Below the pieces are notes generated by a model. The model was not told where the DNA came from. It saw only the letters and a program-made list of their open reading frames with translations, and did not search any database. 47,048 bases of DNA from the IMG/VR virus record IMGVR_UViG_2563366978_000001; one strand, given 5' to 3'. This DNA comes from a virus. Its lineage: Duplodnaviria; Heunggongvirae; Uroviricota; Caudoviricetes. Both the position numbers and the translations under genes were made by a program. Of this stretch, positions 149-47,048 are shown in pieces (positions within the stretch are counted from its first letter, which is position 1; each line of letters begins with the position of its first letter).

Positions 149-2050
149 ATGAGCAAAGTAAAAATCGGTGAATTAATAAACTCACTTGTTAGCGATGTTG
201 AGTCAATAGATAACTCTGACCGTCCTCAAGGGGAGAAAACAAAAAAAATAAAGGCTGTTGCATTAAAATTTAAAAATGCATTATTTAATGACAAGCGAAA
301 GTTTAGGGGGAAAGGATTAGAAAAAAGAATTACAGCCAACACATTCAATGCCTATATGAGCAGGGCCAGAAAACGGTTTGATGATAAACTTCATCATAGC
401 TTTGAAAAAAATATACATCGCCTATCTGAAAAGTATCCTTTATATAATGAGGAGCTATTGTCATGGCTTTCTCTACCTGCTGCCGATATTCGCCAGAGAA
501 TGTCAGCTTTACAGGCAAAATTAAAATTAATTCTCCCTCTATCAGAAGATTTATCTAATATCAGAATTGGCGATAACAAAAGTCATAATAAGTTATTGAA
601 ATTATCAAATAAATATAAAGAGTGGCAATTCGCCATTTCTGATTTAACTAGCGATAACTGGAAAGATAAGCGCGATTATTTATATAAATTACTACAGCAA
701 GGATCTGCCTTACTTGAGGAGTTGAATCAGCTAAAAGTTAACCATGAGATTCTCTATCATCTTCAACTAAGCCCTGCCGAACGTGCATCTATCCAGCAAC
801 GATGGGCGGACGTTCTGCACAATAAGAAACGTAACGTGGTGGTCATTGATTACCCTAAATATATGCAAGCTATTTACGATATTATAAATAGCCCTGCTAC
901 ATTAAATAATCTAAACACTCGTTCAGGTATGGCTCCTTTGGCATTTGCACTTGCTGCATTGTCAGGAAGACGAATGATTGAGATTATGTATCAAGGTACA
1001 TTTACTGTTTCTGGTAAGTATACCGTTGATTTTTTAGGCCAAGCTAAAAAAAGAACTTCTGATAATATAACCAGAAAAATATATACATTATGCGAAGCAA
1101 AAACATTTGTTTATTTAATAAATGTACTTCGCTCATGCCCAGCAGCATCTGATTTTGATGATGTCGTTAAAGGTTATGGAGATAACGACACACGCTCTGA
1201 AAACGGACGTATTAATGCCATATTAGCAAAGGCTTTTAACCCGTGGGTTAAATCATTTTTCAAAGATGACCGCCGTGTTTATAAAGATAGTCGTGCTATT
1301 TATGCCCGTATTGCGTATGAAATGTTTTTCCGCGTAGATCCTCGTTGGAAAAACGTAGATGAAGATGTTTTCTTTATGGAAATTTTAGGCCATGACGATG
1401 AAAACACTCAATTACACTATAAGCAATTCAAGCTGGCCAACTTCTCAAAGACATGGAGGCCAAATACTGGAAACGAAAATACCAGGCTGGAAGCATTGCA
1501 GCAGCTTGATGACGAAATGCCTGGATTCGCCAGAGGAGATGCCGGGGTTCGTCTGCATAACACAGTTAAGCAGCTGGTAGAGCAGGACCCCTCTATAAAA
1601 ATCACGAACAGCACTCTAAGAGCGTTCAAATTTAGCCCAACAATGATTAGTCGATACCTGGAATTTGCTGCTGATGCTCTGGGGCAATTTGTTGGCGAAA
1701 ACGGACAATGGCAACTGAAAATAGATACTCCAGAAATCGTTATGCCTGACGAAGAAGAACTGGAAGCAATACCTGAACTGGCGGATGAATTATCAGAGGA
1801 TGACGATCTGGATGACGACGAAATTGAGATAGAGGAAGAGGAAGAGGAAGAGGAAGATAGCGTAGAAGAACAGCAACCGCCTGCACCTTCTTCGCCTGTA
1901 TCTAAGCCGGTATTTAAGCCGGTGAGAAATATTGGTGATGGCTCATACGTTGTTGAGTTTCATTATAATGGCCAGAATTATGCGTGGTCCGGCAGTGCAA
2001 ACAGCCCCATGTCAGCAATGCAGTTAGCATGGCTGACATATTTCGGTTAA
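149..2050 (+). CDS. telN: Protelomerase (telomere resolvase), N15 TelN-like, 633 aa
   Basis: 633-aa ORF with RBS AGGAGAGG upstream; length, N-terminus and acidic C-terminal tract match my memory of N15 TelN; sits next to the telomere end as in N15. Confidence 0.9.
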   Translation: MSKVKIGELINSLVSDVESIDNSDRPQGEKTKKIKAVALKFKNALFNDKRKFRGKGLEKRITANTFNAYMSRARKRFDDKLHHSFEKNIHRLSEKYPLYNEELLSWLSLPAADIRQRMSALQAKLKLILPLSEDLSNIRIGDNKSHNKLLKLSNKYKEWQFAISDLTSDNWKDKRDYLYKLLQQGSALLEELNQLKVNHEILYHLQLSPAERASIQQRWADVLHNKKRNVVVIDYPKYMQAIYDIINSPATLNNLNTRSGMAPLAFALAALSGRRMIEIMYQGTFTVSGKYTVDFLGQAKKRTSDNITRKIYTLCEAKTFVYLINVLRSCPAASDFDDVVKGYGDNDTRSENGRINAILAKAFNPWVKSFFKDDRRVYKDSRAIYARIAYEMFFRVDPRWKNVDEDVFFMEILGHDDENTQLHYKQFKLANFSKTWRPNTGNENTRLEALQQLDDEMPGFARGDAGVRLHNTVKQLVEQDPSIKITNSTLRAFKFSPTMISRYLEFAADALGQFVGENGQWQLKIDTPEIVMPDEEELEAIPELADELSEDDDLDDDEIEIEEEEEEEEDSVEEQQPPAPSSPVSKPVFKPVRNIGDGSYVVEFHYNGQNYAWSGSANSPMSAMQLAWLTYFG

Positions 2051-10428: not shown

Positions 10429-10450
10429 AGCTTAATCATAAATGATCTTC

Positions 10451-10492
10451 TTATAGCTGGCTATAAAATTTATTTATTATAGCTGGCTTTAA
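10451..10492. promoter_or_regulatory. Two operator palindromes, TTATAGCTGGCTATAA (10451-10466) and TTATAGCTGGCTTTAA (10477-10492), between cB and cro
   Basis: 7-bp inverted arms with a 2-bp centre, repeated 26 bp apart in the divergent promoter region. Confidence 0.75.
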
Positions 10493-10741
10493 ATGAGATT
10501 TATTGCTTATAATAACCGCATGAAACCAGAAGAACTTATTCGCCACTTTGGCAGTGTAGAAAAAGCAGCGGCTGGGGTAGGTGTAACACCCGGTGCTGTT
10601 TACCAATGGTTAACCGCTGGAGAGATTCCTTCATTGCGGCAAAGTGATATTGAAGTTCGTACTGCTTACAAGCTGAAGAGTGACTTTACAACTCGGCGGG
10701 TAAAGCAGTCGATTAAGGAGAGCCGTAAGCGTGGAGCTTGA
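10493..10741 (+). CDS. cro: Cro-like small DNA-binding regulator (start may be the second ATG at 10520)
   Basis: Small basic ORF divergent from the repressor; HTH-like GVGVTPGAVYQWL. Confidence 0.75.
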   Translation: MRFIAYNNRMKPEELIRHFGSVEKAAAGVGVTPGAVYQWLTAGEIPSLRQSDIEVRTAYKLKSDFTTRRVKQSIKESRKRGA

Positions 10742-40341: not shown

Positions 40342-40351
40342 TGGAGTGGAT

Positions 40352-42727
40352 ATGGCAGCAGTAAAAATCTCAGGTGTGCTGAAAGATGGTGCGGGAAAAC
40401 CAATACAGAACTGCACTATTCAACTGAAGGCAAAGCGTAACAGCACCACGGTACTGGTGAACACGGTGGCCTCTGAAAATCCTGATGAAGCCGGGCGTTA
40501 CAGTATGGACGTTGAGTATGGTCAGTACAGCGTCATCCTGTGGATTGAGGGTTCTCAGCCATCACATGTTGGGACCATTACCGTCTATGAAGGTTCCTGT
40601 CCGGGGACGCTGAATGATTTTCTCGGTGCCATGACGGAAGATGATGTCATGCCGGAGGCATTGCGCCGTTTTCAGGAAATGGTGGAAGAAGCGGCACGCA
40701 ACGCCGAAGCCGCCTCTCAGAGCGCAGCGGCGGCAAAGAAATCCGAAACTGCAGCGGCATCATCGAAGAACGCGGCGAAAACCTCAGAAACGAATGCAGC
40801 TAACAGCGCACAGGCGGCAGCGACCTCACAGACTGCATCGGCAAACTCCGCGACAGCAGCCAAAAAATCAGAAACCAACGCGAAAAACAGCGAGACAGCC
40901 GCAAAGACGAGCGAAACCAACGCAAAGTCCAGCCAGACGGCAGCGAAAACCAGCGAAACGAATGCCAAAGCCAGTGAAACTGCGGCGAAAAGCAGTCAGG
41001 ATGCAGCAGCCGAAAGCGAGAGCGCGGCAGCTGGTTCTGCGACTTCAGCTGCTGGATCAGCAACTGCTGCGGCTAACAGTCAGAAAGCAGCGAAGACGAG
41101 TGAAACTAACGCAAAGTCCAGCCAGACGGCAGCGAAGACCAGCGAAACGAATGCCAAAGCCAGCGAAACTGCGGCGAAAAGCAGTCAGGATGCAGCAGCC
41201 GAAAGCGAGAGTGCTGCAGCTGGTTCTGCAAGCGCGGCTGCTGCTTCTGCCACTGCATCAGCTAACAGTCAAAAAGCAGCAAAAACCAGTGAAACCAACG
41301 CAAAGGTGAGCGAAACAGCGGCTGCGAACTCAGCGAAAGCATCGGCAGCAAGCCAGACGGCAGCTAAAGCAAGCGAAGATGCAGCCAGAGAGTACGCAAG
41401 CCAGGCTGCGGAGCCGTATAAATATGTCTTACAGCCGCTGCCTGATGTGTGGATACCATTTAACGATTCGCTGGATATGATTACGGGCTTTTCGCCGTCA
41501 TATAAAAAGATTGTTATTGGTGATGATGAAATAACGATGCCTGGCGACAAGGTTGTTAAGTTTAAACGCGCATCGAAAGCAACCTATATTAATAAATCTG
41601 GTGTGCTGACAGAGGCTGCCATTGACGAGCCACGGTTTGAACGTGATGGCCTGCTTATTGAGGGGCAAAGAACGAACTACATGCTCAATTCGGAAAGCCC
41701 TGCCAGTTGGGGGCGATCGTCAAATATGGATGTTCCCGAAACCGGGACGGATAGTTTTGGTTTTACCTATGGAAAGTTCGTCTGTAACGATTCTCTGATT
41801 GGGCAAACCTCAGCCATTAATATGGCATCAATTGCTGCAACAAAGTCAGTTGATGTCTCAGGCGATAATAAACACGTGACAACCTCATGTCGTTTTAAAA
41901 CAGAACTGCAGGTAAGGTTGCGTATCCGGTTTGATAAATATGACGGTAGCGCAACAACTTTTCTTGGTGATGCGTATATTGATACACAAACGCTTGAAAT
42001 TAATATGACAGGCGGTGCTGCCTCAAGGATTACAGCGAGAGTCAGAAAGGACGAAGCTACCGGATGGATTTTTGCAGAGGCAACAATTCAGGCAATTGAT
42101 GGGGAGTTAAAAATAGGCTCTCAGATACAGTATTCTCCTAAGCAGAGCGGGGCAACCGTATCTGGTGACTATATTTATCTGGCCACCCCACAAGTAGAAG
42201 ATGGGCCTTGTGTATCATCTTTTATTATATCAGGAGCGACGGCGGCGACCCGCGCAAGCGATATAGTTACAGTTCCAATTAAGAATAATCTTTATAAGAT
42301 TCCTTTTACGGTTCTTTGTGAGGTACATAAGAACTGGTATAAAACGCCAAATGCAGCGCCACGTGTTTTTGATACCGGCGGTCATCAAACCGGAGCGGCT
42401 ATTATTCTTGGCTTCGGTCGTTCAACAGATTACGACGGATTTCCTTATTGCGATATTGGAGGAGCTAACAGACGGGTAAACGAAAACGCATCGCTTGAAA
42501 AAATGGTTATGGGGATGCGTGTAAAGTCAGAGCAGTCTACGTGCTCAGTAAGTAACGGGCATATATCCAGCGAAACAAAAACCACATGGTCCTGTATTCA
42601 GAACACCGCAATTATCCGTATTGGAGGCCAGACTACAGCCGGGTTACGTCATTTATTTGGTCATGTCAGGAATTTCAGAATATGGCACAAGGCATTGACT
42701 GATGCTCAGGTGGGGGAGTCAATCTAA
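40352..42727 (+). CDS. stf: Side tail fibre: lambda Stf-like N-terminus, repetitive Ala/Ser/Thr-rich shaft, different C-terminal receptor-binding domain (LamG-like motif NFRIWHKALTDAQV)
   Basis: N-terminal about 120 aa match lambda Stf; internal 189-bp tandem repeat; C-terminus unlike lambda. Confidence 0.8.
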   Translation: MAAVKISGVLKDGAGKPIQNCTIQLKAKRNSTTVLVNTVASENPDEAGRYSMDVEYGQYSVILWIEGSQPSHVGTITVYEGSCPGTLNDFLGAMTEDDVMPEALRRFQEMVEEAARNAEAASQSAAAAKKSETAAASSKNAAKTSETNAANSAQAAATSQTASANSATAAKKSETNAKNSETAAKTSETNAKSSQTAAKTSETNAKASETAAKSSQDAAAESESAAAGSATSAAGSATAAANSQKAAKTSETNAKSSQTAAKTSETNAKASETAAKSSQDAAAESESAAAGSASAAAASATASANSQKAAKTSETNAKVSETAAANSAKASAASQTAAKASEDAAREYASQAAEPYKYVLQPLPDVWIPFNDSLDMITGFSPSYKKIVIGDDEITMPGDKVVKFKRASKATYINKSGVLTEAAIDEPRFERDGLLIEGQRTNYMLNSESPASWGRSSNMDVPETGTDSFGFTYGKFVCNDSLIGQTSAINMASIAATKSVDVSGDNKHVTTSCRFKTELQVRLRIRFDKYDGSATTFLGDAYIDTQTLEINMTGGAASRITARVRKDEATGWIFAEATIQAIDGELKIGSQIQYSPKQSGATVSGDYIYLATPQVEDGPCVSSFIISGATAATRASDIVTVPIKNNLYKIPFTVLCEVHKNWYKTPNAAPRVFDTGGHQTGAAIILGFGRSTDYDGFPYCDIGGANRRVNENASLEKMVMGMRVKSEQSTCSVSNGHISSETKTTWSCIQNTAIIRIGGQTTAGLRHLFGHVRNFRIWHKALTDAQVGESI

Positions 42728-46691: not shown

Positions 46692-46882
46692 ACGAAGATT
46701 TGAGCAAAATCATCTTTTGTTTTATCCCTTAAATGCAAAAAAAAACAACGACAGGCTCATAACAAATTGATAATAAAGGATTTTTTAAAAGAAAGGAAAT
46801 CGTATAAAACTAGTGAAACATGATGAAAATCATCAATGAGATACGTTTCCTCTATTTATTCTCCTAATCCTCACCAACAAAA

Positions 46883-47022
46883 GAACACAATCAAAGATCG
46901 TAAAACAACAATAATAATTCACACAAAATAAAGAACACAAATACAGAAAACAACAACACAATAAAAACAAGAGAACACAAGCTATAAATATTACACCAAT
47001 AGAGAACACTAATCAAGAACAT
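46883..47022. repeat. Right telomere-proximal repeat array: AGAACAC at 46883, 46933, 46973, 47003, and AGAACAT at 47016
   Basis: Direct reading; spacing shortens toward the end (50, 40, 30, 13 bp). Confidence 0.65.
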
Positions 47023-47048
47023 ATCAGCACATAATTCCCCATTATACG
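47022..47048. other. Half of the telomere resolution palindrome (telO/telRL-like): TATCAGCACATAATTCCCCATTATACG
   Basis: Matches the N15 telRL half-site TATCAGCACACAATTGCCCATTATACGC as I remember it with 2 mismatches; the window ends one base short of the predicted symmetry centre. Confidence 0.8.

Follow-up and report, generated by a model that had tools for sequence, protein, structure and literature searches.

A copy-number-polymorphic, in-frame (GAGGAA)n microsatellite in the acidic linker of a telN-type protelomerase gene from N15-like Escherichia phage-plasmids

The stretch of DNA analyzed here, IMG/VR virus record IMGVR_UViG_2563366978_000001 (47,048 nt in full, hereafter the window), carries a telN-type protelomerase gene at positions 149..2050 (+ strand; 633 aa plus stop), within which lies a perfect hexanucleotide microsatellite, (GAGGAA)x4, at 1832..1855 (+) whose copy number proved polymorphic among 50 telN alleles. 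The open reading frame (ORF) matched four Pfam domains, TelK_N, TelK_muzzle, ResT-TelK_cat, and TelK_stirrup, with E-values of 1e-50 to 6e-25 and scores far above the gathering scores. Its predicted product is 77.4% identical to gp29/TelN of phage N15 over residues 1–632 and ∼79% identical to phiKO2 TelK, and the TelK structure PDB 2v6e matches residues 1–536 only (E = 1.8e-295). Five active-site candidates, R275, K300, R382, H415, and Y424, do not vary among 48 homologues; following published TelK and TelN work, we take them to be the active site, with the tyrosine nucleophile among them. Judged by sequence, the ORF is a bona fide TelN/TelK-family protelomerase, and telomere-resolution activity is predicted.

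The original prediction, made from the letters of the window, had read the four GAGGAA units at 1832–1855 as an EEEEEEEE tract, and this was exact. Because 1832 minus 149 is divisible by 3, the units are read GAG-GAA in the frame of the ORF and encode Glu562–Glu569, in the context ...DDDEIEI-EEEEEEEE-DSVEE.... Period-6 perfection takes in one more base on the left and two on the right, spanning 1831–1857 (27 nt), and Tandem Repeats Finder (TRF) reported 4.5 copies with 100% matches. No other perfect tandem run (period 1–12, ≥3 copies, ≥12 nt) is present in the window. Across 300 dinucleotide-preserving shuffles, the longest such period-6 run never exceeded 16 nt (mean 13.5), and 0 of 300 reached 24 nt. 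Elsewhere in telN, GAA and GAG codons occur at a ratio of 27:13, and the probability of strict alternation over eight Glu codons is 0.0046; given how improbable such alternation is, the DNA periodicity is not merely a by-product of a poly-Glu tract. With perfect head-to-tail units of ≤6 nt running beyond chance length, the array belongs among the microsatellites.

Degenerate and partial units adjoin the perfect copies on either side. To the left, GAGATA (1826..1831, +; Glu-Ile) is a degenerate first unit that is doubled (GAGATAx2) in alleles L014, L017, L020, L039, L041, and L044 and has GAGGTA in its place in L013, and it therefore shares the unit-wise dynamics of the array. To the right, the partial last unit (1856..1858, +) is GAT, encoding Asp, in the window and in L004, L033, L040, L045, and L047, and GAG in every other allele.

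Close relatives of this telN (92–99.6% DNA identity) were found in the phage records YDC107_1 (classified as Ravinvirus) and PhiR46_1 and in 32 plasmid records from E. coli, E. albertii, E. fergusonii, Shigella sonnei, and others. Among 5426 complete E. coli genomes, 17 carried telN of this clade, every time on a plasmid. The protein cluster to which this telN belongs (P0001) comprises 682 sequences. The 50 alleles compared comprise that of the window, 16 from E. coli plasmids, six from further plasmids (two each from E. albertii and E. fergusonii, one from S. sonnei and one from E. coli), one from phage YDC107_1, 15 from metagenome contigs and 11 from IMG/VR contigs, the last two groups having been found with a flank-anchored gapped DNA pattern. 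The same pattern gave zero matches in a genome-contig collection holding one genome per species. One IMG/VR contig, 3300045988_113976, contained two gene copies (L040 and L045), each with five repeat units. Many database records of the element are 60–90 kb "circular" plasmids with two telN matches, for example NZ_CP014491.1 (62,572 bp, "circular") and CP088430.1 (91,525 bp); these are probably the result of assembly read-through of hairpin ends and not true circular dimers.

Copy number varied from 0 to 8 among the alleles, plus a single case of 12. Five copies were most frequent (13 alleles), followed by three (10 alleles) and four (eight alleles, including the window); six and seven copies were each found in five alleles, two copies in four and one copy in two (L011 and L024). 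Eight copies (L052) and 12 copies (L005) were represented by one allele apiece, as was the complete lack of GAGGAA, in L013, where GAGGTAx3 stands instead. The distribution is unimodal, with its mode at 5 and its bulk at 3–6 copies, and each state from 1 to 7 copies came from at least two independent sources. Arrays measured 15–81 nt, and every one of the 50 lengths was 3 modulo 6, so the reading frame was always kept. The suggestion that the tract might vary in length without breaking the frame is thereby borne out, and the comparison of repeat number across related telN alleles that had been proposed alongside it found anything but invariance.

The length polymorphism is restricted to this one site. 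In an alignment of 26 full-length genes (1884–1926 nt) the array was the sole gapped block, compared with 148 columns containing substitutions, and an imperfect 12-nt repeat immediately before the C-terminal domain (1894–1923; 2.5 copies, SKPV/FKPV) had the same copy number in all alleles inspected. Within groups of alleles whose flanks were identical over ∼490 bp, seven of the 10 multi-member haplotypes held two or three different array lengths, and at least 10 length changes occurred with no accompanying substitution. On a neighbor-joining tree of the flanks, the Fitch minimum was 29 changes for 49 alleles, close to the value for randomized states (mean 32.6, minimum 28), and array length therefore has almost no phylogenetic signal. 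Variant units were spread contiguously, as GATGAAx3 in L010, GAGGTAx3 in L013, and GAGATAx2 in six alleles, next to a single GAGGAG in L051; such contiguous runs are the footprint of in-place, unit-wise duplication. Together with the unit-wise steps, they point to slippage as the probable mechanism. Whole-unit copy differences among near-identical alleles and an excess of indels over the flanks are the marks of an in-frame coding variable-number tandem repeat (VNTR), and both were found.

In the protein, the array falls in an acidic linker (residues 527–583; 1727..1897, +) that is predicted to be disordered. An AlphaFold2 model built on a 48-sequence alignment gave these residues a predicted local distance difference test (pLDDT) score below 50 (about 30) and zero secondary structure. 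In residues 534–590, Asp+Glu outnumber Lys+Arg by 28 to 2; in the core (1–533) the balance is reversed, at 65 Asp+Glu to 83 Lys+Arg. In the 48 homologues, which reach down to 55% identity, the linker measures 47–71 aa, with 20–34 acidic (D+E) and 0–6 basic (K+R) residues, and is otherwise unalignable, which suggests a disordered segment whose composition is kept while its sequence and length drift. Acidic, D/E-rich disordered tails are known from other DNA-binding proteins, including the tail of HMGB1 and the C-termini of SSB and T7 gp2.5. Common to these and the protelomerase is a strongly negative, predicted-disordered segment on a net-positive DNA-binding core, but the protelomerase segment is internal, not terminal, and any autoinhibition or DNA mimicry by it would be speculative. 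The description of the region as an "acidic tail" in the original prediction thus stands as to charge and fails as to position, since a conserved domain of ∼47 residues follows.

The linker joins the stirrup domain to this small conserved C-terminal domain, CTD2 (residues ∼587–633; 1907..2047, +), which was modeled by AlphaFold2 as two long strands followed by a helix (∼590–633) with a pLDDT of ∼90 in the whole-protein model and 88 when modeled alone. CTD2 is conserved out to the protelomerase of PY54 (43% identical overall). Neither CTD2 nor the linker matched a Pfam family, and searches up to an E-value of 10 returned only noise. Within the otherwise hypervariable linker there is one conserved island, DDDEIE (residues 555–560; 1811..1828, +), with the consensus (D/E)DDEI(E/D) in the 48 protelomerases: all of them have D557 and E558, and ≥90% have I559. 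The array begins three codons past this DDEI island, which looks like a short linear motif for some partner. In five Salmonella protelomerases (P0087, P0088, P0095, P0096, and P0102; 682–713 aa) the C-terminal mini-domain apparently occurs twice in tandem, and its second copy reads ...MPRPRLQLVDGWWTS.IE.DGKT.VYIEMEGSRD.V..AT..AW..L.

N15 TelN and phiKO2 TelK have the same overall layout, in which the stirrup is followed by an acidic linker bearing the DDEI island and then by the small C-terminal domain, and they share the four-domain core (TelK_N, muzzle, catalytic, and stirrup) at 77–79% identity. The array is not shared: it is lacking from the homologous site of N15, phiKO2, and an Enterobacter phage (TRF found ≤2 units) and also from that of PY54, and as far as sequence comparison can tell (GAGGAA)n is specific to the Escherichia clade of the window. 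Gene length behaves correspondingly. In the N15/Enterobacter clade, all fifty 90%-identity clusters (P0002–P0051) are exactly 631 aa long, and members of the phiKO2-like clade are nearly always 640 aa (639–643), whereas genes of the window's clade range from 1884 to 1926 nt. As clades without the repeat have a fixed or nearly fixed length, length variability follows the DNA repeat and not a need of the protein. Two other protelomerase genes have acquired repeats in the linker as independent events. In L001 (IMGVR_UViG_2916255364_000002; 72% identical), a 21-nt repeat at 2665–2720 (2.7 copies, 97% matches) encodes DLDEDEI at the conserved-motif position of the linker, and L002 has (GAGGAA)x2.3 in the same linker.

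We consider it likely that the array is a near-neutral slippage polymorphism of an in-frame (GAGGAA)n in a length-tolerant protelomerase linker of an N15-like (Ravinvirus-type) Escherichia phage-plasmid. The array would grow and shrink by whole 6-nt units, most probably through slipped-strand mispairing during replication. Loops of six nucleotides are poorly recognized by E. coli MutS. Each step would add or remove Glu-Glu in the disordered, strongly acidic linker that tethers CTD2 to the stirrup domain. Constraint on the linker would bear on its composition and leave its length and sequence free, and the linker would be dispensable for catalysis; being unconstrained in length, it would tolerate such changes, which could pile up as a near-neutral length polymorphism. 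In a 2025 study (PMC12624138), N15 TelN truncated by deletion of residues 541–631 or 583–631 had full resolution activity in vitro and inhibited Mre11-Rad50 (SbcCD) like the wild type. The crystallized TelK construct, too, stops at residue ∼536.

Several points weigh against near-neutral slippage. In vivo, C-terminally truncated N15 TelN protects linear DNA only once it is induced, whereas the wild type does so without induction (PMC12624138), and the C-terminal region therefore contributes at native expression. The unimodal distribution of copy numbers could equally reflect weak stabilizing selection, and near-neutrality is itself something that we infer. The upper end of the range is thinly sampled: the eight- and 12-copy alleles were each seen once, telN in the latter (L005) is annotated as frameshifted, and the gapped pattern used for the metagenome and IMG/VR scans cannot match arrays of more than ∼8–9 GAGGAA copies.

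Some of these observations would also be expected if the array were an adaptive tuning knob, with its length selected to set the charge and reach of the linker between the DDEI motif and CTD2. Array length would then modulate TelN autoinhibition, DNA release, or contact with a host factor, and repeat purity would be kept as a source of rapid variation. The acidity and the DDEI island are retained in 48 of 48 homologues despite turnover of the surrounding sequence, the array starts three codons past the island, most arrays are pure and centered on 3–6 copies, and truncation weakens N15 TelN in vivo at low expression, all of which would fit. We nevertheless regard selection on length as unlikely, as sister clades work with a fixed-length, repeat-less linker, alleles with one copy and with seven to eight copies occur on otherwise near-identical genes, and linker length has no known phenotype. 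A more specific and rather doubtful form of the idea is that (GAGGAA)n acts as a fast-mutating rheostat, in which spacer length and charge between the DDEI motif and CTD2 (likened to a double-stranded RNA-binding domain, dsRBD) tune, at native expression, how strongly TelN grips or lets go of hairpin telomeres or interacts with a host factor. Were this so, the favored copy number would differ with the host or the plasmid background.

The polymorphism could conceivably also arise, in place of slippage, from unequal homologous recombination or from gene conversion, acting on co-resident or sister copies. Exchange among phage-plasmids would likewise erase phylogenetic signal, and the contiguous spread of variant units is compatible with slippage and recombination alike. 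Efficient RecA-dependent exchange in E. coli usually needs longer tracts than arrays of 12–48 nt, and at this array length we consider recombination a rather improbable source.

That the copy differences stem from read errors or repeat collapse is very improbable. Several of the source assemblies are long-read assemblies with errors, the telN genes of L005, L007, and L010 carry a "frameshifted" annotation, and L007 has a 1-nt deletion elsewhere in the gene; but length differences among the 50 arrays are always exact multiples of 6 nt, with none of 1–2 nt, and the arrays are far below read length. The states from 1 to 7 copies moreover recur across independent isolates, countries, and metagenomes, and identical proteins recur as well (WP_044069044.1 in three records and WP_052985248.1 in both E. 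coli and E. albertii).

It is just as improbable that the Glu residues are incidental to a DNA- or RNA-level element, that is, that the 27-nt GAGG tract, all purine on the coding strand over 1831–1857 and with GAGG every 6 nt, serves as a protein site, H-DNA, or a Shine-Dalgarno-like pause, given that the tract is absent at the homologous site in N15, phiKO2, and PY54 and that intact alleles have a single unit (L011 and L024) or GAGGTA units (L013). Three more specific candidates were examined and rejected: a conserved DNA site, since the array is absent from orthologues; H-DNA, which requires a mirror repeat, as the tract is not one; and an internal translation start past the array, where there is no ATG or ribosome-binding site and where an in-frame GTG at 1921 lacks a Shine-Dalgarno sequence. 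Phase-variable contingency loci likewise place a mutable simple-sequence tract within a gene, but they toggle their genes, whereas a unit length that is a multiple of three gives no on/off switching; with a 6-nt unit and no allele among the 50 thrown out of frame by the array, phase variation was rejected.

In kind, the array is a textbook in-frame coding microsatellite/VNTR and quite ordinary. Like other in-frame VNTR loci of bacteria and phages, including those used in multiple-locus VNTR analysis (MLVA), it has perfect short units, changes stepwise, keeps the frame, and turns over faster than substitutions accumulate in its flanks. Most coding VNTRs described so far lie in surface or host-interaction proteins, whereas the protein concerned here is a phage-plasmid enzyme that processes DNA. 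The searchable literature yielded no prior account of a polymorphic repeat in telN, and what it offered more broadly on phage coding repeats contained nothing specific to this case. The array offers a high-resolution length marker for typing and tracking the N15-like phage-plasmid clade in Escherichia and Shigella, and the variable length of telN calls for caution in annotation pipelines and protein clustering. The alleles also amount to a natural mutagenesis series in which the TelN linker tolerates between 2 and ∼24 extra Glu residues, a tolerance useful for engineering TelN/tos linear vectors and for study of the C-terminal domain (PMC12624138). The practical value is modest, and the understanding of telomere resolution is unchanged.

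The ends of the window bear on the replicon to which the gene belongs. The reverse complement of the right end (47020–47048), CGTATAATGGGGAATTATGTGCTGATA, aligns with the N15 telRL half-site GCGTATAATGGACTATTGTGTGCTGATA, for which the cut is annotated at the dyad, and the window stops one base before this annotated cut/dyad of the N15-type telomere half-site. The partner half-site is missing at the left end (1–60), where the window begins ∼36–45 nt inside the expected half-site; the telN start lies 148 nt from the window end, whereas in N15 it is 192 nt away from the dyad. The right-end half-site justifies the name telN and gives the window the look of an almost complete N15-like linear phage-plasmid, a linear plasmid-prophage with one telomere apparently trimmed. 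Decamers resembling ATTGTGTTCT flank both ends (25–59 and 46882–46981) in opposite orientation; eight occur in the whole window against 3.4 expected, and six of the eight are no more than 170 nt from an end. The analogy with N15 makes it probable that these end-clustered decamers are the repeats on either side of the TelN occupancy (tos) region.

Three further features of the window were noted outside the protelomerase gene. Where telN and the Bro-N/antirepressor-like gene converge, the intervening positions 2062–2093 contain a GC-rich hairpin (GGCACCG..CGGTGCC) with a T-rich run after it; in phiKO2 a putative bidirectional terminator is annotated at the corresponding position. At 10443–10504, upstream of an ATG at 10521, a 26-nt unit is repeated in two and a bit copies and includes the near-palindrome TATAGCTGGCTATA, and it might serve as an operator or in partition. 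Finally, a 793-aa ORF at 40346–42727 (+) contains nested 42-nt and 189-nt tandem repeats at 40852–41385 with Ala/Ser/Thr/Lys-rich units (AAKTSETNAKSSQT...), and on the basis of these repeats and its position we guess that it may encode a tail-fiber-type protein.

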